From the NCBI GenBank assembly GCA_030606485.1, contig JAUWGH010000004.1, positions 30,001 to 62,000 on the forward strand: DNA of 32,000 bases, given 5' to 3'. Positions 1 to 28,272 of the stretch are shown piece by piece. Positions within the stretch are counted from its first letter, which is position 1. Every line of letters starts with the position of its first letter. Made by a program: the position numbers and the translations under genes. This stretch comes from Promethearchaeota archaeon (lineage in GTDB: Archaea; Asgardarchaeota; Lokiarchaeia; Sigyniarchaeales; SOKP01). The notes under the pieces are model-generated. The model ran no database searches. It had not been told where the DNA came from and saw only the letters and a program-made list of their open reading frames with translations.

Positions 1-370
1 CCTTCTTTTGTTTGGCTCTATAATTTTCTATTGCCTTACGTAATCCATCAGAGGCTAAGTTAGAGCAGTGCATTTTAATGGGGGGAAGACCATCTAATGA
101 ACCTGCAATATCATCTCTTGTTATTTTCATAGCCTCATCTAATGTCTTTCCTTTAGCTAACTCCGTTATCATTGAAGAAGTAGCAATGGCTGCACCACAC
201 CCAAAAGTCTGGAAGGAAATGTCATCAATCCGATCATCCTTTATTTTAATATAAATATACATTAAATCTCCACAAACTGGGTTTCCGACCTCTCCCACAG
301 CATCTGCATCCTTCATTTCTCCCATATTTCGGGGGTTTCTGAAATGATCCATTACTTTTTCTGAATACAT
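1..370 (-). CDS. iscU: Fe-S cluster scaffold IscU/NifU-type (3' end runs off the window; absent from ORF track)
   Basis: Manual translation from ATG at 370: MYSEKVMDHFRNPRNMGEM...GNPVCGDLM...FQTFGCGAAIATSSM...GLPPIKMHCSNLA; three conserved Cys, the Asp after Cys1 and the LPPIK motif are present; 45 bp downstream of iscS. Confidence 0.95.
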   Translation of the reverse strand, partial: MYSEKVMDHFRNPRNMGEMKDADAVGEVGNPVCGDLMYIYIKIKDDRIDDISFQTFGCGAAIATSSMITELAKGKTLDEAMKITRDDIAGSLDGLPPIKMHCSNLASDGLRKAIENYRAKQKK

Positions 371-415
371 TTTATTTATGCCTTATTTTTAATTTTTGAT
401 TAATATTTTTATATT

Positions 416-1654
416 TTAATGGTGGTGGTCAGTTTCGTATGTTGGATCAAACATATATTTTTTCCCCTTTTTTAAGGGGGACATCTTTCTCAATTTTTCG
501 ATAATAGGAGGGAGTTTTTCTAAAAAATAGTCAATATCTGCTTCAGTCGTATATCTTCCCATAGTAATTCTTAATGAACCATGTGCATCTTCAGGTTTTT
601 GACCGATGGCTAATAATACATGAGAAGGTTCTAAAGATTTTGAAGAACACGCCGAACCTGTTGAGGCGGCTATACCTTCCACATCCAAACTTAAAATTAT
701 AGATTCTCCTTCAATATATCTAAACCCTAAATTAACATTGTTTGGTAGACGCTTAGTATAGTGCCCATTAAGATAAACATCTTCAATATTTTCGGTAATT
801 TCCTTTATAATTTTATCTCTAAATTTTATTAATTTTTCAGATTCTTCCTTCATATTCCGTTTGCATAATTCTACTGCTTTTGCAAACCCAGCAATACCTG
901 GAACATTTTCTGTGCTTGACCTCAACCCCCTTTCATGCCCTCCGCCATGTAATAGCGGCTCTATATACTTACCCCACCCTTTTCTTACACCATGTCCCCT
1001 GATATATAATAATCCAACTCCTTTTGGTCCATATAGCTTGTGCCCCGAAGCTGAAAGCAGATCTATATTCATCTCTTCAACATCGATAGGAACTTTTCCA
1101 AAAGTTTGAACAGCGTCAGTATGAAATATAACATCGTGTTTTTTTGCGATTTCTCCAATTTCTTTTATTGGTTCGATTGTTCCTATTTCATTATTTGCAA
1201 ATATTATAGATATCAAAATTGTTTTATTGGTGATGGTCTCTTCCAATTCTTTTAAAACAATCAATCCGAATTCATCTACAGGTAAATAACTCACTTTGAA
1301 CCCTTGTTTTTCCAGATATTGACAAGTGTGTTGGACAGCATGATGTTCAATGCTTGAAGTAATTATATGATTACCACGTCCTTTATTTTTAAAAGCTACC
1401 CCTTTTATTGCTAAATTATCAGATTCGGTGCCAGATGATGTGAAAAAGATTTCATCCTTTTTAGCGTTAATCAATGAAGCCACAGTTTCTCTAGATTTTT
1501 CTAATATTTGAGCTGCATTTTGACCTATTTTATGAAAACTTGATGGATTTCCATAAGTTTCTCTATGATGTTTCTCAATTTCTTTTATAACCTCTGGATC
1601 CATGGGAGTTGTAGCAGCGTAGTCTAAATATACATTTTTCATTTCTACTTTCAC
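416..1654 (-). CDS. iscS: Cysteine desulfurase IscS/NifS (canonical, PLP Lys present); alternative start ATG 1642
   Basis: YLDYAATTP, EHHAV, HTDAVQ, SGHKLYGPKG (Schiff-base Lys), STGSACSS (catalytic Cys). Confidence 0.95.
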   Translation of the reverse strand: MKVEMKNVYLDYAATTPMDPEVIKEIEKHHRETYGNPSSFHKIGQNAAQILEKSRETVASLINAKKDEIFFTSSGTESDNLAIKGVAFKNKGRGNHIITSSIEHHAVQHTCQYLEKQGFKVSYLPVDEFGLIVLKELEETITNKTILISIIFANNEIGTIEPIKEIGEIAKKHDVIFHTDAVQTFGKVPIDVEEMNIDLLSASGHKLYGPKGVGLLYIRGHGVRKGWGKYIEPLLHGGGHERGLRSSTENVPGIAGFAKAVELCKRNMKEESEKLIKFRDKIIKEITENIEDVYLNGHYTKRLPNNVNLGFRYIEGESIILSLDVEGIAASTGSACSSKSLEPSHVLLAIGQKPEDAHGSLRITMGRYTTEADIDYFLEKLPPIIEKLRKMSPLKKGKKYMFDPTYETDHHH

Positions 1655-3047: not shown

Positions 3048-4499
3048 TTATAATAGATAACCTTCTTTAATATCTTCAATGTTTATTCCTAGCTCTTTTA
3101 GTTTTTCTCGTATCTCATCAGAAATGTCAAATATTTTCTTTTCCCTTAATTTAACGCGAGTCTCTGCAATAATATTCAATAAAGCTTTTATTAATTTATC
3201 TTTTTCATCCATTGAGTCAATCACATATTCTGATATTCTTTGCTCTAAATTAGGGAATATTCCAAATATTTTATCAATTTTGGTCATAAATTCAAAAAAT
3301 TTATTTTTAAATTCTTGTGTAATTTTTAAATTCTTTTCTAATATCTCTCTATTAAGATCCCTTATTAACGATAACAATTCTGCAATTGCGACAGGTGTGT
3401 TAAAATCATCATCCATCGCTTCGATAATATTTGATTCAGCAACATTAATTTTTAAGAGTAAATTATCAACTTCAGAAGATATTTCTTTTATTGGAGGAAT
3501 TTGATGAATTTTCTTTATTGTATTAAGTAATTTTGAGTAATTTTTCTCAATCTGCTTCATATTCTCTAAAGAGTAATTTATGGACTTCCGGTAATGCGAA
3601 GAAATTAAAAAGAATCTAACTACCATAGGGTCAAATTCCTTTATAATTTCAGAAACTAAAAAGAAATTTCCCAAACTTCTTGACATTTTCTCATCATCGA
3701 TATTTACAAAACCATTATGTAGAAAATAATTCGCAAATGGCTTACCTGTGAATGATTCAGATTGTGCAATTTCATTCCTATGATGAGGAAATTTCAAATC
3801 TTGACCACCTCCATGAATATCAATTGTTTCCCCTAAATAATTGATTGCCATTGCTGAACATTCGATGTGCCAACCTGGCCTCCCCTTACTCCACGGGCTT
3901 TCCCAATATGGTTCTCCTTCCTTCATTTTTTTCCATAAAGCAAAATCTCTCGGGTCTAATTTGTCTTCACCATATGCAACATCTTGATCTTCTTCGATTT
4001 CTTGTTCAATTTCCTCTTCAATATCTACGTTTGAAAAAATTGTGTTGTAATTCGGAAATGAATTTACAGAAAAATATACAGAGCCATTTTTCTCATAGGC
4101 AACACCTTTTTCTATCAGACCTTGAATAAATTTTATCATAAAGTCGATAGTCTCCGTGGCTTTGGGATTTTTATAATCCTTCTCAATATTGAGAATATCC
4201 ATAATTTCCATATATTCCTTTATATATAGTTCACTGAGTGTGGTTGTATCAATACCTTTCTCATTGGCCCTGTTAATTATATTATCATCAATGTCGGTAA
4301 CGTTTTTTACGAGTTTAACATTAAAACCCTTGAATTCAAGATACCTGCGAATGATATCAAATACTACTGCTGACTTTGCGTGTCCCAAATGAGTTGACTC
4401 ATAAACCGTTGGACCGCAAACATACATAAGAACCTCTTTAGGACTTATTGATTTAAACTCTTCTTTTTGAAATGTTAAACTATTATATATTTGCAACAT
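3048..4499 (-). CDS. cysS: Cysteine--tRNA ligase (class I)
   Basis: MYVCGPTVY, HLGH (HIGH motif), GRPGWHIECSAM, DIHGGGQDLKFPHH, KMSRS (KMSKS variant), DDDFNTPVA. Confidence 0.97.
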   Translation of the reverse strand: MLQIYNSLTFQKEEFKSISPKEVLMYVCGPTVYESTHLGHAKSAVVFDIIRRYLEFKGFNVKLVKNVTDIDDNIINRANEKGIDTTTLSELYIKEYMEIMDILNIEKDYKNPKATETIDFMIKFIQGLIEKGVAYEKNGSVYFSVNSFPNYNTIFSNVDIEEEIEQEIEEDQDVAYGEDKLDPRDFALWKKMKEGEPYWESPWSKGRPGWHIECSAMAINYLGETIDIHGGGQDLKFPHHRNEIAQSESFTGKPFANYFLHNGFVNIDDEKMSRSLGNFFLVSEIIKEFDPMVVRFFLISSHYRKSINYSLENMKQIEKNYSKLLNTIKKIHQIPPIKEISSEVDNLLLKINVAESNIIEAMDDDFNTPVAIAELLSLIRDLNREILEKNLKITQEFKNKFFEFMTKIDKIFGIFPNLEQRISEYVIDSMDEKDKLIKALLNIIAETRVKLREKKIFDISDEIREKLKELGINIEDIKEGYLL

Positions 4500-4528: not shown

Positions 4529-4545
4529 TGTTTTTAAGCAAAATA

Positions 4546-4618
4546 AGCCAGTGGTGGGACTTGAACCCACGAATAACCGCTCTGCAGGCGGTCTCCTTAG
4601 CCACTCGGATACACTGGC
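4546..4618 (-). tRNA. tRNA-Cys (GCA), intronless, CCA not encoded
   Basis: Acceptor stem GCCAGTG/CACTGGC, anticodon arm ACCGC-CTGCAGA-GCGGT, T arm GTGGG-TTCAAGT-CCCAC, discriminator U73, G37. Confidence 0.97.
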
Positions 4619-4930
4619 TTTTATTGCTGTCGAGTTATTAAAAATATGTGTATTATATCAAATAAATTTTATTCTAATATTCTTTTAAAATTATTCATTG
4701 AATTGTTCTCGCCATTTCTTGATGGATAACCTATTAATATCCTCCCGAAAAATTTTCAATATTGCATCTATTTAAGCAATTTAAACATAATTCTGTGATG
4801 AATTACAATCATTAAATACTCAATTTTGCCAAAGCAAATGAATTTAAACCTTTTGGAACTATTAATGGAAAAAAAGTAATATAAAAAGATATTCAAATAG
4901 GAAAAGAAAATAATAAAAAAATTAAAATTT

Positions 4931-14928: not shown

Positions 14929-16203
14929 ATGATATATTTCAAAATTTTAATATTTATAACAGTAATTCTAAAAAAGCAAAATATGAATATTTATAGTATG
15001 AAAGTAATTATTATCGGTAATGGAGTCGCAGGTACATTTTCTGCTCAAAATATTAGAAATATTGATAAAAGCGTAGATATTAAAATAATAACTGAAGAGA
15101 AATATCCGTATTATTCCAGACCCAAATTACCTGAATTTATCTCTGAACAAGTATCAATCAACGATATTATGGTTTTTAGAGAAGATTGGTATAGGAAGAA
15201 AAATATAAAATTAATTTTAGCAAGGAAAGTTTTAGGAATTCATCCAAGACAAAAGCACCTCCTTCTTGAAGATCAAAAAGAATTCATTCAATATGATAAG
15301 TTAATTATTGCAACTGGAAGCAAACCTAATATTCCTCCAATTAAAAACGCAGTTGAACTATTAAAAAAAGGAGTTTTTACTTTACGCAATATTGATGATG
15401 CCATAGAAATACAGAATTATATTAAAGTAAATAATACTAAGAAGGGGATCATAATTGGGGGGGGTTTATTGGGTTTAGAATTGGCAAAACAAATCAAAAA
15501 TTGCAATCTTGACACAACGATAGTTGAATTTTTTCCAAGGCTTTTACCTCGTCAATTAGACGATGAATGCGCAGAGATGTTAAAAGCTGAAATTGAAAAA
15601 ATGGGAATAAAAGTTATATTAAATGCTGCAACTGAGGAAATTTTAGGAGCTGATTCCGTTGAAGGAATAAAGATAAAGAATGGACCTGAAATTAAAGCCG
15701 ATACTGTATTAATTCAAGCAGGAATAAGACCAAGAACCGAGCTAGCAGAAAAAGCAAAAATTCATCAGAATCGAGGTATTATTGTCAATGAATTTTTACA
15801 AACAAGCGATAAAGACATTTTTGCTGTTGGTGATGTGATAGAATACAAATCTCAAACATGGGGGATAATTCCTGCCTGTATTGAGCAATCAAGAATTGTT
15901 GCAGCATCAGTTTTAAATAAAGAAGAGATTCAATATAAAGGAACTACTCCAAAAACCACTCTAAAAATTGTTGGAATTGATTTAACGTCTATAGGAATAT
16001 TTGATCCTTCACAAGAAGAGGATATTGGATGGGAGATTCTAAAAAAAGTTGATCAAGATAATTGCTGCTATCAAAAATTCGTTTTAAAGGATAATAAATT
16101 AAAAGGAGCAATTCTTTTTGGAGAAACAAAATCAATTCCATTTGTAAATAAGAATATAAACTTAAATGTTAATAAAGAAGAGATTAATAAATTATTAGAA
16201 TAA
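14929..16203 (+). CDS. FAD-dependent NAD(P)H oxidoreductase, NADH:rubredoxin oxidoreductase-like (likely start ATG 14998)
   Basis: GNGVAG, ATGS, GGGLLGLE, AVGDV; lacks the BFD/siroheme domains of NirB; a rubredoxin gene lies directly downstream. Confidence 0.85.
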   Translation: MIYFKILIFITVILKKQNMNIYSMKVIIIGNGVAGTFSAQNIRNIDKSVDIKIITEEKYPYYSRPKLPEFISEQVSINDIMVFREDWYRKKNIKLILARKVLGIHPRQKHLLLEDQKEFIQYDKLIIATGSKPNIPPIKNAVELLKKGVFTLRNIDDAIEIQNYIKVNNTKKGIIIGGGLLGLELAKQIKNCNLDTTIVEFFPRLLPRQLDDECAEMLKAEIEKMGIKVILNAATEEILGADSVEGIKIKNGPEIKADTVLIQAGIRPRTELAEKAKIHQNRGIIVNEFLQTSDKDIFAVGDVIEYKSQTWGIIPACIEQSRIVAASVLNKEEIQYKGTTPKTTLKIVGIDLTSIGIFDPSQEEDIGWEILKKVDQDNCCYQKFVLKDNKLKGAILFGETKSIPFVNKNINLNVNKEEINKLLE

Positions 16204-16668: not shown

Positions 16669-18069
16669 ATGGATTTTAATTTAACAGAGGCCCAAAAAGA
16701 ATTACAAAAAAAAACACGGGAATTTGCAATTAAGGAAATCTTGCCAGTAGCAGCTAGTTATGATGAGCATGGAAAATTCCCAATTGAAATTATTGAGAAA
16801 GCTAATAAAGCAGGTTTAGTGAATTTAGTAATTCCAAAAAAATATGGGGGACCTGGTTATGGTCTCTTAGAATCTGTTATAGTTGTTGAGGAAATTGCTG
16901 CGGCTTGTCCCGGGTTCGCAACATCCATATTCGCAAATAATTTAGGAGCAGAACCAATAATTTTAGGAGGAAATGAAGAACAGAAAGATAGAATACTAAG
17001 AGAATTAGTAAAAAAATTTACTTTAATTTCTTTTGCTACCTCTGAACCTGGAATGGGATCTGATGTTGCTGGAATTAAATGTCGAGCTCAAAAAGATGGA
17101 GAAGATTATATTTTAAATGGTACAAAGTATTGGATTACCAATGCAGGTTATGCAAAATATATTTCTCTATTTGCAACAGTGGATCCAGCAAAAAAACATA
17201 AAGGAATATGTGCTTTTATTGTACCAACTGATTTAGAGGGAGTTAAAACAGGAAATCCAATTCCTAAATTGGGGCATAGAGCATCAAATACTACTTCTGT
17301 GGTTTTAAAAAATGTAAGAATTCCAAAAGAAAATGTATTAGCTCCTCCAGGGAGAGGTTTTGTTTTAGCAATGCAAACATTTGCTCATACTCGTCCAGCT
17401 ATAGGAGGTTTTGCTACTGGTTTAGCAAGGTCCGCTATGGAATATGTGATTGATTATGCAAAAAAAAGAGAGACTTTCGGAAGGCCAATAGCAAATTATC
17501 AAGCTATTCAGTTTAAAATTGCTGAAATGTATAAAAATATTGAAGCTAGCCGATTATTAACCTATAAATCAGCATGGGAGACTGATCAAGGGTTAGATAA
17601 TACATTAAGTGCAGCATGTGCAAAAGCATTTGCCTCGGATATTGCTATGCAAGTAACTACTGAAGCTATTCAAATAATGGGGGGATACGGTTATATCAAA
17701 ACATATCCATTTGAAAAATTATTCAGAGATGCAAAACTATTTCAAATTTACGAAGGAACCTCTGAAATCCAAAGAATAATCATTTCAAGATTTGTGATGA
17801 AACAATATAAACATGTAATGCCAAATTTATTTGAACTCCCAAGAATTGAAGTAGAAAGAGAAGAAGAAGTTGAAATTCCATCAGTGTCATTATTGACTAG
17901 TGAGGAACTGGGAGGAAAATACAGATGCACAGTATGTGGATATATTTATGATCCTGTAAAAGGTGATCCAGATAGTGGAATCTCTCCTGGAACTCCATTT
18001 GAAGAAATTTCAGATGATTGGCATTGCCCCATATGTGGAGTTTCTAAAGATAAATTTGTAAAAATATAA
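16669..18069 (+). CDS. Acyl-CoA dehydrogenase fused to a C-terminal rubredoxin domain
   Basis: [44 protein letters not shown] (catalytic Glu); then [13 protein letters not shown]...[11 protein letters not shown] (17917-18069). Confidence 0.93.
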
Positions 18070-18896: not shown

Positions 18897-21002
18897 ATGG
18901 AAAATGATGCTAATAATTTAATTAATGAGAAAAGTCCATATTTACTTCAACATGCTGAAAATCCAGTTAATTGGTATCCATGGGGAGATGAAGCATTTGA
19001 AAAGGCTCGAAAAGAAAATAAACCAATATTCTTATCAATTGGATATTCAACTTGCCATTGGTGTCATGTTATGGCACATGAGTCATTTGAAGATCCAGTA
19101 GTGGCTGAATTAATGAATGAATTATTTGTTTCAATTAAAGTGGACCGAGAAGAGCGGCCTGATATTGACAAGGTCTATATGACTGTTTGTCAAATGATGA
19201 CAGGCCAAGGGGGATGGCCTCTCACTATATTTTTAACTCCTGATAAAAAACCATTTTTTGCTGGAACATATTTTCCTAAAGAAAGGAGATTTGGTCGAAT
19301 AGGTTTAATAGAATTAATTTTAAGAATAAAAGAGCTTTGGAAAACCCAAAAAGATGATATGCTTAGAGCAGCAGATCAAATTGCTTTTTCTTTACAAAAT
19401 TTAGATTTTAAATCGCCCGGAGATAAACTTAACGAAAAAACCATTAAAAAAGCTTATAATCAATTATTGAGTCAATATGATAATAAAAATGGAGGTTTTA
19501 ATAACGCTCCCAAATTTCCTACTCCACATAATCTTCTCTTTCTTTTAAGATTTTGGAAGCGTACTGGAAATAAAGAAGCTTTAGAGATGGTTGAAAATAC
19601 CCTTCAAAAAATGAGGCTTGGTGGTATTTATGATCATATTGGATTTGGTTTTCATCGATATTCTACAGATCCAGTTTGGCTTGTACCCCATTTTGAAAAG
19701 ATGCTCTACGATCAAGCTTTATTGGCAATTGCTTATACAGAAGCTTACCAAGCAACTAAAAAAAATGAATACGCAAATACAGCTAAAGAAATTTTTACTT
19801 ATGTCTTACGTGATATGACTTCACTTGAGGGTGGATTTTATTCAGCTGAGGATGCTGATAGTGAGGGTAAAGAAGGAAAGTTTTATGTATGGACTATTGA
19901 AGAATTCCAACAAATACTTGAAAAGGAAGAAGCAGAATTAGCAAAAACAATATTTAATTTAAAAAATCAAGGAAATTATTTAGTAGAAGCAACTCAAAAG
20001 GATTCAGGTTATAATATATTATTTCTTAAATCATCATTGACCAATCTTGCCAAAGAGTTAAATATTCCCAAACAGGATTTAAGGCATCATGTAGAAAAAA
20101 TTCGTGAAAAATTATTCAAAATTAGAGAAAAACGAATCCACCCTCATAAAGATGATAAGATATTAATTGATTGGAATGGGTTAATGATTGCTGCACTTGT
20201 TAAAGCATCTCAAGCTTTTGATAAATCTTTATATTTAAATGCGGCAAAAAAAGCATTAAATTTTATTCTTTCAAATATGCGGAAACCCAATAATAGATTA
20301 TTACATCGATATAGAGAAGGAGAGGCTCAAATTGATGCTTACTTAAATGATTATATTTTCTTAATATGGGGGGTTATTGAACTATATGAAGCTACTTTTG
20401 ATACTTCTTTTCTTAAAACCGCTCTGGAATTAAATAAAGTTGTAATTGATCATTTCTGGGACGATTACATAGGTGGTTATTTTTTTACGGCCGATGATAG
20501 TGAGATTCTTCTAACTCGTCAGAAAGAGATCTACGATGGAGCAATGCCATCAGGGAATTCCGTTGCTATGTTAAATCTATTAAGATTAAGTTATTTGACA
20601 GGAAATCATGAGTTCGAAGAAAAAGCGAATATTATAAGTAAAGTTTTTGCTGAACGAGTTAATAATTCACCGATTGCGCATACTCAATTAATGGTTGCTG
20701 TTGATTTTAGCGTTGGTCCAACCTATACAATAGTAATTGTTGGTGATGCTGAAGAAATTAATACGCAAGAAATGTTAGCATATATTCATAATCAATTTCT
20801 CCCAAATATAACATTAATTCAGAGAAATATCAAACAGGATCCTCCAGAAATCGATGTATTTATAAATTATATCCATAATTACAATAAAATAGATGATAAA
20901 ACTACTGCCTATATATGTACAAATAAAACTTGTAAACCACCAATAACAGATGTCAATAAATTGTTAAAACTTATTAATCCAAGATGGAATCAAAAGTTAT
21001 GA
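18897..21002 (+). CDS. YyaL/SPATA20-like protein (thioredoxin-like domain plus alpha/alpha-barrel)
   Basis: [66 protein letters not shown]. Confidence 0.92.
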
Positions 21003-22165
21003 ATGGTATTTGGGATGTTAAATCCGATGTTGTGAGAAGAGGAGATAATAATAGAGATGTTTCGCCTTTAACTGGCAAAACAAAAAAGGATGAAAACGGT
21101 TTCACGCATTATGTATTCAGTAAAGTTTTATTTAATAATCCGTGGTATGTCATCCCTGATGATGATATTGAATTATTCAAGAAATTTTTAAATGGAGGTT
21201 CAAGGCATTATCCATCCGATGGAATTATTCCTTGTGATATAGTTGCTAGGGAAACAAAAATAATTTTAAATAAAATAGTAGAAATCGCTAATGACCCTAG
21301 CGATAAATATTATGAAGATGCGCGTAAAGCACTAGAAAATGGTAGATATGCATTAGTTAGAGGGACTTTAAAAATTTATTTAGGCAAATACACTACGAGA
21401 GATTGGAGAAGAAAAAGATTTACTGATGATATTGACTTCTGGATTTACAAAATGGATTTATATGAGTATGTGTTAAAAGAAAATGGTTGGAAAAGGATAT
21501 CAGATACAAAAGAATGGGAAAAACAAATTCAATGGGTTAATCTTATTAGAAATGAAAGGGAAACAAAAATGCTTATTGCAGCAAATGACATAAACTTATT
21601 GTTGGATTTCGGGTCAGGAGCTTATCTTGAAGGTACAAGCCTAAAGGAAATTTTTAGCAAAAAAATAAAAAGAGGTCATGATGTTGACATTAGTGATTTA
21701 ATAAATGTAGCCATGTTTAATGGATTTGATTATAAACATTGCGGAGAGAGGCTTAGAGAAAAAAAGTGGCTTAAAGCTTGGATTGCATTTGAGGAAGCCG
21801 TTAATACAAGAAATACACGAACAACTTCGAATTTGATAAGTCTTTGTCGATATTCGTTAGGAATTGCTGATCACTTAGAAAGGGTTGCAAAATCGATAAA
21901 TAAATATCATTATAAAATTTTTGATAAATCTGAATATCCAGATAACGAATTAGAGATAATATGTAGAATATCAATTCATTGGATTGAATTTCTTTCGTCT
22001 CATGGTCATGATAACACTCGGAAAATGATTCATGATTATTTAATAGAGCAAAGAGATTTTAAATTTCAACACTCAAAAAATCTTAGGACTTTTACTGAAA
22101 AAATACTAAATCTTCTTAATTCTAAATATTCATATTTGAAAATCTTTTTTGAAATTGAAAATTAA
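20984..22165 (+). CDS. Hypothetical protein, probable Pol-beta-superfamily nucleotidyltransferase fold
   Basis: 393-aa ORF overlapping yyaL by 19 nt; RGT...RFTDDIDFW and [13 protein letters not shown] resemble the two signature motifs of AbiEii-like nucleotidyltransferases. Confidence 0.6.
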
Positions 22166-22286: not shown

Positions 22287-23081
22287 TTATTTATCTTCAA
22301 GTAATATTACTTTATCCACAAATAACTCGTAATTATTATCTTCATCGAAATCGTGTATGACAACCTTCTCTACATCGTCAAATCCCCTTACTTCTAGAAG
22401 CTCAGATTGGTATAAAATTTTTACATCAGATATTTTTAATTTTTCTTGTATTTCTGAATTACCAGGAGGAGATTTACTGTAAGTGATTAACACAACTCTT
22501 CCAGTGTATTTTGTTAATTCCAATGCGAGTTTTAAGGAATTGTCTCCGTTATCTACAATTAACACTCTTTCATCGTTAAATTCTGATAAATTATCTACTT
22601 TCTTATAAATACCCTTACCAAGAAACTCATTAAAACCTATGATATTTCTTTCTTCTAATTGACAAGCAGTAATTACATCAACTTCTGGGTTTGCACCGTC
22701 TCTATAATTTCGAATTGCTGCTTGAAGCGCATCAGCTGCCAAATTAGAACAATGCATTTTAATCGGAGGTAATCCCTCGAGTTCATCAGCCACATCAGAT
22801 CTTGTTATTTTATACGCTTCGCTAAGTGTTTTACCCTTTGCCATTTCAGTAATCATAGAAGAAGTCGCTACAGCAGAACCACAACCAAATGTTTTGAACT
22901 TAATATCTTCTATTATTTCCTCGCCTTTTTCGTTTTTGCCGACCTTTATATAAATCCACATAAGATCTCCGCATACTGGATTTCCAACTTTTCCCATACC
23001 ATCTGGAATTTCTATTTCTCCCATGTTTCTTGGGTTTCTAAAGTGATCTAATACTTTTTCAGAATATGCTGTTGATTTCAT
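22287..23081 (-). CDS. iscU: IscU scaffold fused to a degenerate thioredoxin-reductase NAD(P)H-binding-like domain
   Basis: N-terminal about 130 aa: CGD, GCG, LPPIKMHC. C-terminal about 130 aa aligns by eye with the TrxB middle domain (GFNEFLGKGI...VLIVDNGDNSLKLALELTKY...). Confidence 0.85.
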   Translation of the reverse strand: MKSTAYSEKVLDHFRNPRNMGEIEIPDGMGKVGNPVCGDLMWIYIKVGKNEKGEEIIEDIKFKTFGCGSAVATSSMITEMAKGKTLSEAYKITRSDVADELEGLPPIKMHCSNLAADALQAAIRNYRDGANPEVDVITACQLEERNIIGFNEFLGKGIYKKVDNLSEFNDERVLIVDNGDNSLKLALELTKYTGRVVLITYSKSPPGNSEIQEKLKISDVKILYQSELLEVRGFDDVEKVVIHDFDEDNNYELFVDKVILLEDK

Positions 23082-23082
23082 A

Positions 23083-24276
23083 TTATTCTTTTACCTCATT
23101 ATATTGTTTTAATAAATTAGGAGGAGTTAGCGGTGATAATACCCTTAATCTTTTGACTACATTAGGTAAAACCTCCATAACCTTCTCTACATCAGTTTCT
23201 TTTGTGTATCGACCCATTGAGAGAAGTAAACTACCGTGAGCTTCTTCATGTAGCAATCCCATTGCGATAAGTGTGTGGGATGGCTCTAAAGTTTTAGAAC
23301 TGCAAGCAGAACCTGTTGCTGCAGATATATTTTGATCTCTTAATAATAAGATTAATGATTCACCTTCAATATATTCAAATCTAAAATGAGCATTACTGGG
23401 AAGCCTTTTTTCTGGATGACCATTTAAATAAGATTTTGGTATTGACGATAAAATTCCCGAAATGAGCTTATCTCTAAGACGTTTTAAAAAATCTGCCTCT
23501 TGATTTATTTCTTGTTTCATAATTTCAGCTGCTTTACCAAATCCCACAATACCTTGCATATTTTCGGAGCCTGATCTCATACCTCTTTCTTGACCACCTC
23601 CTATAATAATAGGATTCACTCTCACTCCTTTTTTTAAGTATAACGCACCAACACCCCGAGGTCCATAAATATCGTTCGAAGAAAAAGTCATTAAATCTAC
23701 TGGAACTTTTTGCACATCAATAGGAATAACATTTTCAATTGCTACAGCATCTGTGTGAAACAAAATACCTTTTTCTTGTGCTATCTCGCTAATCTCCACT
23801 ATGGGTTGGAGAGATCCTACTTCATTACTAGCAGATGTAATTGAAATTAGAATTGTATTCTCTCTAATTAAACGTTTTAATTTTTCTATATTGATGACAC
23901 CAAATTTATCAACACCAACTCTTGAAACTTCAAAACCTTGTCTTTCTAAGTATTTTCCAAGATTTAATATCGAAATATGCTCAATCTCAGAAATTATAAT
24001 ATGATTTCCCTTTCTTTTTCTATTTAAAGCCGCACCAATTAGTCCTAAATTACTAGCTTCCGTTGCACTAGATGTAAATATTATACTATCTGGACTTGGA
24101 GCATTAATGAAATCAGCAATTTTTTGACGCGATTCTTTTAAGGCATTGGTAGCATCATCTCCATCAAAATGTAGAGATGCGGGATTTGCAAAAATTTTAT
24201 TATAATATGGTCTCATTGCAGATAGAACCCTTGGATCAACTGGTTTAGCTGCTTGATAATCTAAATATACACTCAT
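23083..24276 (-). CDS. iscS: IscS-like protein lacking the PLP Schiff-base lysine (HK->ND)
   Basis: YLDYQAAKP, EHISI, HTDAVA, SSNDIYGPRG, ATGSACSS (Cys kept). Confidence 0.9.
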   Translation of the reverse strand: MSVYLDYQAAKPVDPRVLSAMRPYYNKIFANPASLHFDGDDATNALKESRQKIADFINAPSPDSIIFTSSATEASNLGLIGAALNRKRKGNHIIISEIEHISILNLGKYLERQGFEVSRVGVDKFGVINIEKLKRLIRENTILISITSASNEVGSLQPIVEISEIAQEKGILFHTDAVAIENVIPIDVQKVPVDLMTFSSNDIYGPRGVGALYLKKGVRVNPIIIGGGQERGMRSGSENMQGIVGFGKAAEIMKQEINQEADFLKRLRDKLISGILSSIPKSYLNGHPEKRLPSNAHFRFEYIEGESLILLLRDQNISAATGSACSSKTLEPSHTLIAMGLLHEEAHGSLLLSMGRYTKETDVEKVMEVLPNVVKRLRVLSPLTPPNLLKQYNEVKE

Positions 24277-24336
24277 TTTATCAATTTTCCCTCCACTTTG
24301 ATTTTTGAAAATAATTTAATTTGTATTTTTTAAACG

Positions 24337-24699
24337 TTAAAACCACATAGTAGCATCTGCTTCTAAAACTAAATCGTTTAGAGTAGCAGCTCCAACAATT
24401 TTTGTTCCTGATATTAATTCAACTTTATCCAATCCTAACATTCTTTTTGAAGCTTCACAAACTAAAATCTCAACACCAGCTTCAAGAGTCTTGTCTAGCA
24501 TTTCTTTCACAGATGGGAATTCTCCTAGTTTTATTCTATTCGCTTCTCCAGGCATCAGTATTCGTAATCCTGTACCTAAATAATATACTTTTGCATCAAT
24601 ATCCATAGCCTTAGCCGTTTGAGCTAAAACTAATGGAGAATATTGTTTTTCAGGATTGTCACTGGTTTGAACATATAATATAAACTTTTTCTCACTCAT
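24337..24699 (-). CDS. DsrE/DsrF-like sulfur-carrier family protein
   Basis: 120 aa; PLVLAQTAKAMD, YYLGTG, GVEILVCEAS (conserved Cys), VGAATL; SD GGAGG. Confidence 0.85.
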   Translation of the reverse strand: MSEKKFILYVQTSDNPEKQYSPLVLAQTAKAMDIDAKVYYLGTGLRILMPGEANRIKLGEFPSVKEMLDKTLEAGVEILVCEASKRMLGLDKVELISGTKIVGAATLNDLVLEADATMWF

Positions 24700-24712
24700 T
24701 TCTTTCCCTCCA

Positions 24713-24964
24713 TTATTTTATTGGTTTTTTAAAGATAAATATTAAATCATTATCCTCCTTTCTAAAATCTAAGATCTCGGCACCAGTCCTTTTTGCCCAC
24801 CTATGCAAATCTTCATCAGCGGCAGGATCATCTGCTATAACTTTGAAACTTTGACCATCTTCAAGTTTTTCGTATAAATTTCTAACTTCAAATAAGGGTT
24901 CAGGACAATACAATCCTCTTGTATCTAATTTTTCGTCAATTTCTTTATTTTCTTCACTTTTCAT
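24713..24964 (-). CDS. tusA: TusA/SirA-family sulfur carrier
   Basis: LDTRGLYCPEP (CPxP), VIADDPAA...WAKRTG; SD AGGAG. Confidence 0.92.
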   Translation of the reverse strand: MKSEENKEIDEKLDTRGLYCPEPLFEVRNLYEKLEDGQSFKVIADDPAADEDLHRWAKRTGAEILDFRKEDNDLIFIFKKPIK

Positions 24965-25194
24965 TTTACGAGACTCCTAATGCAAATTTAAAATATTTAA
25001 ATTCCAAATTAGAAAGGATTTATTAATAAATTCTAATCCTTAAATAAAAACAAACCAGAAGAAACTTAAATATTCTCATTATTTTTTAATGAAAATATTT
25101 GTATTTTGAAATTACACAATAAATACTATAGGAATTAATTTTATAATATATAAATTTCAAGCAAAATGATGATTAAAATTCTATAATTGTTAAT

Positions 25195-25301
25195 TTATAA
25201 CTTATTAAGATAAAGTTGTTGATGATCTTTCGATTCCGCTAGAGAATAACTTCAACAAAAGCTTCTTGCAATTTTATTGAAAAACTATCAAATCTCATCA
25301 T
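25195..25301 (-). pseudogene. clpB: Probable clpB 5' remnant (frameshifted and truncated)
   Basis: MMRFDSFSIKLQEAFVE, then after a 1-nt shift YSLAESKDHQQLY, matching the ClpB N-terminus pattern MRxDxFxxKxQEA..EAxSLA...HQQ; GTGAT SD; 11 nt after the dnaJ stop. Confidence 0.65.
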
Positions 25302-25312
25302 TTTACATCACT

Positions 25313-26320
25313 TTATAATCCTAAATTTTTTAATTTTAATAATAATTCTTTCTGTTCTCCCGTTAATTTTTTGGGAACATTAATTTTTACTTTCACCAAT
25401 AAATCACCTCTTTGATCTGAATTCAATTTATAAAATCCTTGATTTTTTAATCTAAGAGTGGCATAATGTTGAGTTCTTGAAGGAATATTTACATTTAAAG
25501 TGCCCCCATCGATTTTAGGAACTTTAATTTTTCCCCCTAATGTTGCAACTGAGAAAGGTATTTCTTTTTCGATATAGAGATCATTGGTTCTTCTTTCAAA
25601 AATTGTATGATTCTCAATGTGAATTACTATATAAAGGTCGCCATTTGGACCACTATATTCTCCCAGCATACCTTTACCTTTAAGTCTTAATTTCTGATTA
25701 TCATGTACTCCTCTAGGAATTTTTATTGATAGGGTAGTTTTTTTATTAGTAGCAGGATCTATATATTGAACCTTTCTAGTACCCCCATGAAATGCTTCCA
25801 TAAAATTAATTTCCATATCATATCGCAAATCCTCACCTTCTCGAGGGATATTTGGTCTTACCCTTGTTCTTGTACTACCACTTCTTTTATTTGAAAAAAC
25901 ATCAAATATATCTCCTAAATCATTAAAGAAATCGAAATTGGATCCTGAGAATCTCCCCGAACTTCCCATATTTTTGAAAAATTCGCTAAAATCTCTAGGA
26001 TTTCCGGAGCTAGTATATACATAAGTTCCGTCAGGAGTTCTATTAAAATTTGAACGACTACTACCAGGGGTAGATTGATAATATGTTGAGCGATCACCAT
26101 CTACTACTCCAAATTTATCGTACATCTCCCTCTTTTTATCATCGTTCAAGACGCTATAAGCTTCATTAATTTCTTTAAATTTTTCTCCAGATTTTGGTTC
26201 GTCTGGATTTACATCAGGGTGATATTTTCTTGCCATTTTTCGGAAAGCACGTTTTATTTCTTCCTTAGTAGCGCTTTTATCTATTCCTAAAATTTTATAA
26301 TAATTTTTCTTTGGCAGCAT
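25313..26320 (-). CDS. dnaJ: DnaJ-family co-chaperone, type II/CbpA-like (no zinc finger)
   Basis: J domain with HPD, G/S/F-rich region, C-terminal substrate-binding domains, no CxxCxGxG repeats; SD GGGGTGA. Confidence 0.93.
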
Positions 26321-26391
26321 TTTTCACCCCAGCACAGCTCTTAATTTAAAAAAATAAAAAGTTATTTAAAAAAAAAACAAATATTTTTATT

Positions 26392-28272
26392 TTAGGCTTC
26401 TTCATAATCTGTATCTACTATATCATCTTGTCCAGAAGCTTTTCGATATTGTTCAGCTTGTTTTTCATGTTCTGGTCTATCATCTTGCGGTATTCCACAT
26501 GAACCACCAGGATAACCTTTATGAGTCTGATTTTGATCATAAATCCTCGCTGAAACTTGATGTAAAGCAGTTTGTAAATCTTCCATTGCGTTTTTAATCC
26601 TTGAAGGATCTTCTCCTTCATAAGCTCCCTTCAACACTAAAACTTTTTGTTCAATAGTTGTTTTTAAGTCCCCGATTTTATCTTCGTGTTCTTTCATAAT
26701 TTTCTCGGTTTGATATATTAGAGATTCCGCTTGGTTTTTTAAAGATATTAATTCTTTGATTTTCTTATCTTCCTCAGCATATTTCTCGGCTTCTCTGATT
26801 TTTGCATCTATTTCTGATTCAGACATCTTTGTAGAAGCAGTAATAGTAATTCCAGTTTGTTTTCCAGTACCCTTGTCTTTTGCTTTTACATTTAAAATGC
26901 CATTTTCATCGATGTCAAATGTCACCTCTATTTGTGGCACCCCTCTCGGAGCTGGTGGTATCCCAGTTAAATGAAATGTCCCTAAAGTAATATTATCAGC
27001 AGTCATTGGTCTTTCACCTTGAAGTACATGAATTTCAACTGCAGGTTGATTGTCTGACGCTGTCGAAAATACTTCAGTTTTTCTCGTAGGAATTGTCGTA
27101 TTTCTTTCAATTAATTTTGTAAATACTCCTCCCAATGTTTCGACACCCAAAGAGAGTGGCGTGACATCTAAGAGTAATAAATCCTTAACTTCACCAGATA
27201 AAATTCCACCTTGTATTGAAGCACCCAGAGCAACACATTCCATCGGATCAATACCATGTTCTGGAGGCTTTCCAAAAAGTTCTTGGAACTTTTTTTGAAC
27301 GCTAGGCATTCTTGTAGGCCCTCCTACTAACAGAATCTTATCTATACTTGAAGACTGTAAGTTTGCATCGCTTAACGCCCTTTTAATAGATATCTCTAAT
27401 TTTTTTAAAATTGGGCTAATTAAACTCTCAAGTTTGGCTCTGGTTAAGGACATATTTAAATGTTTAGGTCCATTTGCATCCGCAGTAATGTAAGGCAGAT
27501 TTATTTCAGTTGTTAGCGTCGTGGATAACTCAATTTTTCCTTTTTCTGCTGCGTCTCTAATCCTTTCCATTGCTTTAGAATCTTTTCTCACATCAATTCC
27601 TTGTTCCTTTTGAAATTCTGTAGCAATATTATCTACCAAAATTCTATCCATGTCAGTTCCTCCCAATTGAGTATCTCCAGCTGTGGAAATGACTTCAAAT
27701 ACTTTATTTTCCATTTCGAGAATAGTTACATCAAATGTACCTCCTCCTAAATCAAGAACAGCAATTTTAATACTGATATCTTCCTTATCTAAACCATAAG
27801 ATACGGCAGCAGCAGTAGGTTCGTTAATTAATCTTCTTACGTTTAATCCAGCAATTTTACCGGCGTCTTTTGTGGCTTGCCTTTGATTATCGTTAAAATA
27901 TGCAGGTACCGTAATAATAGCTTCACTTACTTCTTCTCCTAAAAAGGCACTCGCATCTTTCTTTATTTTACTTAAGATCATTGCTGAAATTTCTTGCGGA
28001 GAATAATCTTTTCCATCGATTTTAACCTTATAATTCATACCCATTTTTCGTTTAATGGCAGTTATGGTTCTATCTGGATTAGAAATAGCTTGTCTACGAG
28101 CAGGTTCTCCTACTAATCGTTGTCCATCTTTCGTGAAGGCAACTACACTAGGAAAAGCTTTACCTCCAATAGTGAGTCCTTCAGCGCTCGGAATTAATGT
28201 GGGCTTTCCCCCGATTAGTACAGCAGCTGCAGAATTTGAAGTTCCCAAGTCAATTCCAATTATTTTTCCCAT
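26392..28272 (-). CDS. dnaK: Hsp70 chaperone DnaK
   Basis: [47 protein letters not shown]. Confidence 0.98.

Follow-up and report, generated by a model that had tools for sequence, protein, structure and literature searches.

A TusA- and DsrE3-like carrier pair linked to a lysine-less IscS–IscU operon in an Asgard archaeon and its relatives

The closest described counterpart of the system considered here is the IscS2–IscU pair of Archaeoglobus fulgidus. IscS2 has no desulfurase activity, its loop cysteine ligates a [2Fe-2S] cluster and the two proteins form an (IscS–IscU)2 complex that holds this cluster; how this complex obtains its sulfur was left as an open question by the authors, who guessed at sulfide (PMC8918507). 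A 2026 review describes the MIS system of iron–sulfur (Fe–S) assembly as one without a carrier protein and with an unknown electron donor (PMC13066941). We analysed a 32,000-nucleotide stretch of the genome of a Promethearchaeota archaeon (Lokiarchaeia; GenBank assembly GCA_030606485.1, contig JAUWGH010000004.1, positions 30,001 to 62,000 of the forward strand; hereafter the window), in which four adjacent genes encode a TusA-like and a DsrE3-like sulfur carrier, an IscS with aspartate in place of the catalytic lysine (Asp-type IscS) and an IscU fused to a second domain. The MIS class (MisS/MisU) is reportedly that of Garcia et al. The A. fulgidus pair (PDB ids 4EB5, 4EB7 and 4HVK, and 4R5F for the D199K mutant) has the same IscS subfamily, IscU type, iscS–iscU gene order and loop cysteine, but it was published as a two-component system, whereas the lokiarchaeal pair is preceded by TusA and DsrE and its IscU carries a reductase-derived domain. 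Judged by its sequence, the IscS–IscU core in the window is of the A. fulgidus IscS2–IscU type, or MIS class, and is already known (PMC8918507), so an earlier note on this DNA, made from the sequence alone, went too far in presenting that core as part of a candidate new system. All four protein families are familiar, and the new part is the link of an Asp-type IscS–IscU pair to sulfur carriers. We lean towards the view that the operon is an Archaeoglobus-type (MIS-class) Fe–S assembly pair with carriers of its own, which would bring sulfane sulfur to an IscS–IscU complex that does not desulfurate cysteine.

The four open reading frames (ORFs) lie on the minus strand at 24964..24713 (83 residues), 24699..24337 (120 residues), 24276..23083 (397 residues) and 23081..22287 (264 residues). 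They run in the same direction, their intergenic gaps are 13, 60 and 1 bp, with the iscU start 1 bp past the iscS stop, and each of the four ATGs is preceded at 5–12 nucleotides by GGAG, GGAGG or GAGGT. These coordinates and sequences bear out the note's description of four co-oriented genes, each with a Shine–Dalgarno sequence, and the sulfur-handling cysteines that it listed are all in place: TusA C20 (CPEP), DsrE C81 (VCEAS), IscS C325 (GSAC) and IscU C37, C67 and C111. The cassette is bounded by T-runs 3′ of its last stop codon and by a 348-bp AT-rich spacer 5′ of tusA. None of the bacterial ISC operon genes hscB, hscA, fdx, iscA and iscR is found in it. In the order of transcription, its parts are as follows.

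24965..25312, minus strand: AT-rich spacer, presumed from its sequence to be the promoter region, with a TATA-like TTTAAATA at 25001-24994 and GGAG at 24977-24974
24713..24964, minus strand: tusA-like sulfur carrier, 83 residues, Cys20 (CPEP) codon at 24905-24907
24337..24699, minus strand: DsrE3-like sulfur carrier, 120 residues, single Cys81 (VCEAS) codon at 24457-24459
23083..24276, minus strand: lysine-less IscS (MisS, A. fulgidus IscS2 type), 397 residues, Asp202 codon at 23671-23673, loop Cys325 codon at 23302-23304
22698..23081, minus strand: IscU scaffold domain, residues 1–128, with Cys37, Asp39, Cys67, His110, Cys111 and LPPIK
22659..22697, minus strand: flexible linker, residues ~129–141, with an extra Cys140, codon at 22662-22664
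22287..22658, minus strand: probable relic of an NADPH-binding domain, residues 142–264 and stop, resembling thioredoxin reductase (TrxR)-like ferredoxin–NADP reductase, glycine motif degenerate (DNGDNS)

The third product has the class-V aminotransferase/IscS fold and sequence (Pfam Aminotran_5, E 1e-73) and matches the A. fulgidus protein (PDB 4eb5_A) with an E-value of 3e-135 over residues 3–383, with an identical SSNDIYGP motif. This motif covers residues 199–206 and places Asp202 where the lysine that forms a Schiff base with pyridoxal phosphate (PLP) normally sits; Lys-type genes read S[GA]HK.YGP, and the D199K mutant of the A. fulgidus protein (PDB 4r5f) reads SSNK. In the alignment of cassette IscS proteins C325, H100 and D176 are invariant, and T72, H100, D176, S199 and Cys325 are invariant across the Lys-type and Asp-type proteins together. 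Only three alignment columns discriminate between the two classes (Gln to Ala179, His to Asn201 and Lys to Asp202), of which Ala179 was free to vary in our search, while Asn201 and Asp202 were demanded by the search pattern and owe their invariance partly to that construction. We take these columns to be the equivalents of the PLP-contacting residues Q183, H205 and K206 of E. coli. In a 142-sequence IscS tree, which is unrooted and was built without classical bacterial IscS and NifS, a single branch parts the Lys-type from the lysine-less proteins (Shimodaira–Hasegawa-like approximate likelihood ratio test support of 99). Because only three columns of the cofactor pocket differ consistently while Cys325 stays invariant, the loss of the lysine reads, at the level of sequence, as remodelling and not as decay. 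By homology to the assayed A. fulgidus protein, the window IscS would be desulfurase-dead. A 1.4-Mb Asgard genome contains the same cassette with serine at the lysine position (SANSIYGP) and a plain IscU (locus L031, G001:C1:1171900-1184265).

The linkage of this IscS to carriers recurs widely. A scan of species genomes with a DNA pattern encoding SSND[ILVFM]YGP[KR]G[VI]GA gives matches in at least 120 species. Among the matches listed, to which all Asp-type counts in this text refer, the species with the motif comprise at least 49 Bathyarchaeia, at least 28 Asgard archaea (at least 19 Loki and at least 9 other), at least 12 bacteria, at least 10 Methanosarcinales, Methanocellales, anaerobic methanotrophic archaea (ANME), Geoglobus and similar, at least 5 Thermoplasmatota, at least 4 Hadarchaeota and at least 12 other or unlabelled archaea. 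Carriers were counted in the 90 Asp-type loci with at least 900 bp of upstream sequence: TusA stands upstream on the same strand in 76, DsrE in 41, both in 38 and either in 79 (88%). IscU follows the Asp-type IscS in 85 of 98 loci. Two sets of Lys-type loci served as controls, one of 24 loci from Asgard archaea, Bathyarchaeia, one Methanosarcinales genome and one Actinomycetota genome, the other of 23 loci from the window's own family, collected by a Pfam search; S[AS]HK forms are common in this family and the pattern SGHK.YGPKG is too strict for them. Carriers lie upstream on the same strand in 1 of these 47 Lys-type loci (L182), and another (L164) has a divergent TusA as well as DsrEFH-like genes. 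The source genome (G000, an assembly of 3.75 Mb in 13 contigs), one Methanosarcinales genome and one Actinomycetota genome hold both types of IscS, and in all three the carriers are found only by the Asp-type gene, a contrast that says more than the pooled counts.

Lokiarchaeal contigs with unrelated flanks keep the order tusA–dsrE–iscS–iscU fusion, and the gene neighbourhoods of DsrE orthologues from 20 genomes of this phylum place the cassette in seven family-level Asgard groups, with IscU either fused or plain. Since many genomes repeat this gene order between other flanking genes, the arrangement is far beyond chance, and the four genes are a conserved unit, as the earlier note had supposed. 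The identities of the genes, their conserved residues and this specific linkage are direct observations. The Methanosarcinales genome contains two TusA–DsrE–IscS–IscU::flavoprotein cassettes with Asp-type IscS, and Geoglobus (Archaeoglobi), the nearest relative of A. fulgidus examined, has ThiI–TusA–IscS–IscU, with an Asp-type IscS and an IscU of 153 residues. In this Geoglobus locus (L183, G154:C61:11500-19500) a SepCysS-like gene (SepSecS family), DUF169, ThiI, TusA, Asp-type IscS and IscU stand in a row, with one TusA amid three grouped sulfur-consuming pathways. The full cassette with a short IscU fusion also occurs in Actinomycetota (L187, L051) and Deltaproteobacteria (L080). The bacterial DsrE and IscS sequences closely resemble their Asgard counterparts (58% identity for IscS), which suggests that the whole cassette was transferred horizontally.

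Both carriers are assigned to their families by Pfam. The first product matches Pfam TusA (PF01206) with E 3.6e-20 and 72 bits against a cut-off of 28.6, and it matches E. coli TusA (3lvj_C) with E 2e-7; all 23 cassette TusAs compared have C20, P21 and P23. Its score against the NCBIfam equivalog of E. coli TusA (NF001423) is 50.3 bits, below the cut-off of 78, and the protein is a member of the TusA family and not an E. coli TusA equivalog. The second product matches Pfam DsrE (E 1.9e-15, 57.5 bits against a cut-off of 22.7) and falls short of the NCBIfam DsrE2 equivalog (37.8 bits against 210). Its best solved relative is 3MC3, DsrE3A of S. solfataricus, in which the cysteine is aligned, and its nearest bacterial relative (44% identity) stands after TusA in an sHdr-LbpA cluster; going by these nearest relatives, it is closest to DsrE3. 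Cys81 is present in 80 of 80 relatives and identity is at least 78% across several Asgard classes. The subfamily is small, with 219 clusters at E ≤ 1e-3 among 1.84 billion representatives. One 42%-identical DsrE cluster (P0406) stands alone among unrelated genes and is uninformative. At loci L016 and L030 a lone DsrE of this subfamily has as its neighbour a PP-loop ATPase that carries ThiI and NFACT-R_2 RNA-binding domains, and the translations at L016 also include DsrEFH-like genes, a second TusA-like, a ThiF/MoeB-like and a CysK-like gene. Proteins of the TusA and DsrE3 types have been shown to act as sulfur transferases that pass persulfide sulfur to each other in vitro, and other DsrE3 proteins form homotrimers (PMC11094781).

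The two carriers differ in how firmly they belong to the cassette. Many loci of Loki and Bathyarchaeia have TusA immediately next to IscS, leaving no room for DsrE, and in a few loci DsrE comes after IscU. The core partner is TusA; DsrE is dispensable. Because DsrE is absent from about half of the cassettes, and TusA there abuts IscS, TusA is likelier than DsrE to be the direct partner of IscS/IscU. The relay TusA → DsrE → IscS suggested earlier is not supported by these counts (DsrE in 41 of 90 loci, TusA in 76 of 90). A complex prediction for two copies of the Asp-type IscS with TusA, run with alignments A2 and A1, gave a score of 0.01, which counts neither for nor against binding.

The N-terminal domain of the fourth product is recognised by Pfam NifU_N (E 3.5e-46), with a weak Pyr_redox match in the same protein, and by NCBIfam NifU_clost (192 bits, cut-off 187.9). 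Its model matches 4eb5_C (Z 23.4), the domain also matches Methanothrix IscU, and C37, D39, C67, H110, C111 and LPPIK are all invariant. The model of the whole fusion has two confident domains and a disordered linker (predicted local distance difference test score of 31 at residues 130–144). The C-terminal stretch corresponds to positions 115–230 of the NCBIfam TRX_reduct profile (E 5e-10), and its modelled fold matches ferredoxin–NADP reductase of B. subtilis (3lzw; Z 18.2, root-mean-square deviation 2.1 over 122 residues) and 3f8d (Z 17.9). In an alignment with full-length fusions, both halves of the FAD-binding domain are missing from the lokiarchaeal protein; its C-terminal domain has no CxxC, and DNGDNS replaces GGGDSA, a departure from GxGxxA/G. 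Since it has no FAD domain, dinucleotide motif or CxxC, we do not file the fused protein as a reductase. Of the TrxB-like domain in the earlier description, the NADPH-domain fold stands and the thioredoxin reductase does not.

The origin of this domain is indicated by longer fusions. In Methanosarcinales and an unlabelled archaeon (L184:1173-2498 and L185:372-1703, both on the minus strand, L102 and L057), IscU is fused to a complete TrxR-like flavoprotein in proteins of 441–444 residues, which have a full-length Pfam Pyr_redox_2 match and the FAD glycine motif and no CxxC. In another archaeon (L127) iscU is followed by a separate gene for this flavoprotein. The short fusions of ~264 residues (Loki, Hod, Hermod, Thor-like, Actinomycetota, Deltaproteobacteria) contain the NADPH domain alone, with a glycine motif D[ST]GD.S; 28 of 30 distinct short fusions have the linker cysteine, and no other cysteine occurs in the domain that follows. 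Because the IscU of Methanosarcinales carries a whole flavoprotein of the same type, the lokiarchaeal domain is probably the relic of an electron-donor module. We infer that a built-in module was cut down to a docking or regulatory domain with a mobile fourth cysteine kept. The fused domain is well conserved and is therefore still under selection.

From these parts we infer how the proteins might bind, which way sulfur would flow, where it would come from and what the relic domain might do. As Asp202 cannot form the PLP–lysine aldimine, IscS most likely takes no sulfur from cysteine; it keeps the mobile-loop Cys325 and would bind IscU in the manner of the solved A. fulgidus complex. Sulfur probably arrives as protein-bound sulfane sulfur on TusA Cys20, and of the two carriers TusA is more likely to donate directly to IscS Cys325, to the cysteines of IscU or to both. 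The DsrE3-like protein, with its Cys81, probably serves as a dispensable further carrier from which TusA is loaded or buffered, which matches the characterised TusA/DsrE3 cascades. The ultimate source could be polysulfide or persulfide formed from ambient sulfide, or the Lys-type IscS of the same genome. The fused ferredoxin–NADP-reductase-like flavoprotein, complete in Methanosarcinales, is a probable electron donor for the reduction of S0 to S2−. In the lokiarchaeal form, where the relic domain and linker Cys140 are conserved, nucleotide binding has probably been lost.

A broader and more tentative proposal is that a lysine-less IscS–IscU pair with TusA, with or without DsrE3, forms a distinct and widespread Fe–S route of anaerobes, in Asgard archaea, Bathyarchaeia, Hadarchaeota, Thermoplasmatota, methanogen/ANME lineages, Archaeoglobi and some bacteria. 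This route might draw sulfane sulfur from environmental sulfide or polysulfide and not from cysteine, with electrons supplied by the IscU-fused flavoprotein or, where a relic is left as in Loki, formerly so supplied. We regard it as possible, but doubt it more than we credit it.

Several observations weigh against a carrier-fed assembly pair, to which the built-in invariance of Asn201 and Asp202 should be added. Because 11 of the 90 Asp-type loci have neither carrier, an Asp-type pair can exist without carriers nearby. Conversely, L182 (G191:C35:13450-16478) has a Lys-type IscS (SGHKVYGP) on a long branch, with DsrE and TusA upstream and IscU downstream. The earlier note had tied tusA/dsrE strictly to Asp-type IscS; the association survives (79 of 90 loci against 1 of 47), its strictness falls with these 11 loci and L182. 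A Fisher test on the two proportions gives p ~1e-24, a value that is inflated by the relatedness of the genomes, which are not independent samples. Lone copies of this DsrE subfamily in Asgard genomes adjoin ThiI-like PP-loop tRNA thiolases and not Fe–S genes, so that the carriers are not specific to Fe–S assembly. Lastly, since Lys-type IscS is encoded in this genome and in at least 22 of 30 other genomes searched in the family, a cysteine-derived supply is possible, and the cysteine-independent route of the earlier note is at most a candidate.

The remaining sulfur genes of the source genome bear on these points. A Lys-type IscS of 412 residues (SGHKLYGP, GSACS) is encoded in the window at 416..1654 on the minus strand and is followed by a plain IscU at 2..370, whose ORF is open at the window edge. 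This pair is separated from the Asp-type cassette by 21 kb and lacks neighbouring TusA or DsrE genes; the genes for cysteinyl-tRNA synthetase (3048..4499) and tRNA-Cys (4545..4619) are close to it. SufB-like genes are found at C2:27457 and C4:163792. On contig C1 (G000:C1:18720-20202) DsrE and TusA precede a SelD gene with one in-frame TGA, probably for selenocysteine, and this row resembles a carrier set dedicated to selenium, distinct from the pair in the window. A third TusA lies near two DsrE-family genes, possibly a TusBCD/DsrEFH-like set (G000:C5:249289-251324).

The Lys-type enzyme could make the cassette a cysteine-dependent second tier, in which it persulfidates TusA, as the E. coli enzyme does, and TusA, with DsrE, ferries the sulfur to the Asp-type IscS–IscU. 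The necessary partners exist: Lys-type IscS (SGHKLYGP) and IscU share the window (2..1654), most genomes of the family carry a Lys-type IscS, a SufS-like enzyme is present in one cassette-bearing Thermoplasmata genome, and the closest characterised TusA is that of E. coli, an IscS binder (3lvj). However, a Lys-type IscS stands near carriers in none of the 23 loci of the window's family, and no canonical desulfurase was found in the searched Geoglobus genome, whose completeness is not established and where the Asp-type protein is the best Aminotran_5 match and the rest are weak. With sulfide proposed as the source by the A. fulgidus authors (PMC8918507), we consider a second tier of this kind unlikely. 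Sulfur might instead flow outward, if IscS–IscU gathered it, for example from sulfide or as a labile cluster, and passed it via TusA/DsrE to tRNA-thiolation, thiamine, molybdopterin or Cys-tRNA pathways, as a hub and not an Fe–S factory. This is the direction established in E. coli, from IscS to TusA to the DsrE-like TusBCD, and it would suit both the Geoglobus cassette, which follows a SepCysS-like gene, DUF169 and ThiI, and the lone Asgard DsrE copies beside ThiI-like PP-loop enzymes. This reading is unlikely too, given that a lysine-less IscS has no known means of making persulfide itself, that an IscU scaffold with all ligands kept accompanies it in 85 of 98 loci, and that the joining of IscU to a reductase module fits cluster synthesis.

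A role in sulfane-sulfur stress, with the cassette trapping or detoxifying persulfide and polysulfide or repairing damaged clusters in place of routine assembly, is suggested by the sulfidic habitat and by at least seven distinct Loki/Hermod loci (L010:7123-9507, L013:7050-9422, L018:8658-11048, L044, L071, L108 and L157). There the next gene encodes a protein of ~790 residues that combines a CoA-disulfide-reductase-like part with rhodanese–TusA–rhodanese, and some of these cassettes also have genes for rubrerythrin and desulfoferrodoxin nearby. This neighbour is absent from the present genome, where only three small TusA genes were found, and from most other lineages, and the IscS–IscU core assembles clusters in the solved homologue, all of which makes a stress function very unlikely. 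Selenium handling, which the earlier note had named as an alternative, would have a YedF-like TusA and DsrE carry selenium and the IscS homologue act on selenocysteine or selenide species. The match of TusA to the NCBIfam YedF family is weak and below threshold (33.6 bits against a cut-off of 110), and the genome does use selenocysteine, as its SelD with an in-frame TGA indicates. But the separate DsrE–TusA pair directly before selD (C1:18720-20202) is the obvious selenium set and weakens this alternative; moreover, an enzyme without the lysine could not be a PLP-dependent selenocysteine lyase, and the Fe–S scaffold IscU is always in the cassette. We hold a selenium function to be highly improbable. 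Delivery of sulfane sulfur by TusA to an inactive IscS–IscU pair is the reading that we prefer.

The surroundings of the cassette vary. The genes for DnaK and DnaJ (25313..28272, minus strand) adjoin it upstream on the same strand; we rejected them as stand-ins for HscA and HscB, as their position 5′ of the cassette is not kept in related loci. In the window DnaJ, Pfam gives a J domain and a C-terminal domain and no zinc-finger match at E ≤ 0.01. Convergent to the cassette, 18897..22165 (plus strand) encodes a DUF255 thioredoxin-domain protein (701 residues) and a 393-residue protein without a family match. A closely similar pair lies beside the cassette at locus L009 (703 residues with the same Pfam families, and 388 residues without matches) and in none of the other loci. 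Farther away, an acyl-CoA dehydrogenase with a C-terminal rubredoxin domain (466 residues; 16669..18069, plus strand) adjoins a rubredoxin-reductase-like flavoprotein at 14929..16203. The ~790-residue cassette neighbour of other genomes resembles NAD(P)H persulfide/polysulfide reductases. The source stretch is found in cold-seep, marine-sediment and subsurface metagenomes of several studies, and the presence of the organism in cold-seep and marine-sediment samples agrees with the sulfidic, anoxic habitat assumed earlier. Short contigs 95–99% alike on iscU and iscS occur in one salt-marsh metatranscriptome (X20), a signal too weak for transcription or co-transcription; a further dataset (X19) is probably DNA, and two cold-seep metatranscriptomes have no match to the cassette.

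The inactive IscS–IscU of A. fulgidus has been a puzzle since 2012–2015, as a crystallised cluster-assembly complex without a known sulfur supply. The recurrent link to carriers suggests where lysine-less IscS–IscU pairs get their sulfur and, together with the flavoprotein fused in some lineages, it names candidates for the carrier and the electron donor that the MIS system is missing. If the broader proposal were true, a distinct route would fill the MIS gaps of sulfur source, intermediate carrier and electron donor. The presence of the cassette in Asgard archaea and many uncultured sediment lineages bears on how Fe–S proteins are made in sulfidic, cysteine-poor settings and on early Fe–S biogenesis. 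A literature search, in which coverage of subscription papers was incomplete, found none that link TusA or DsrE to lysine-less IscS or to MIS.

Each known system shares a part of the cassette. The E. coli relay for tRNA 2-thiouridine, IscS–TusA–TusBCD, uses the same three families and passes persulfide between single cysteines, but there an active Lys-type IscS is the source and sulfur flows away to tRNA, whereas the lokiarchaeal IscS is lysine-less, IscU is a fixed fourth partner and inward flow is likelier. The TusA/DsrE3 cascade of the sHdr-LbpA sulfur-oxidation systems (Hyphomicrobium denitrificans, Metallosphaera cuprina) has a DsrE3-type protein with a single conserved cysteine, like the lokiarchaeal DsrE. 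Its acceptor is a heterodisulfide-reductase-like oxidising complex of energy metabolism; the lokiarchaeal carriers neighbour an Asp-type IscS–IscU pair, with no hdr or lbpA. SUF (SufS–SufE or SufS–SufU) likewise places a dedicated carrier between source and scaffold, but SufE and SufU are unrelated to TusA and DsrE, and the source is an active desulfurase. In NifU a scaffold is fused to a redox module, as in the full-length Methanosarcinales form, although that module is [2Fe-2S] ferredoxin-like and not a TrxR-like flavoprotein. In the isc1 cluster of Methanosarcina acetivorans, IscS1 (MA0808) has no catalytic lysine and IscU1 (MA0807) is oversized at 24.2 kDa, two features shared with the lokiarchaeal cassette. 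The isc1 paper did not name the neighbouring genes as sulfur carriers and left isc1 uncharacterised. Closest of all is the A. fulgidus pair itself, whose Geoglobus relative has TusA directly upstream of the Asp-type IscS.

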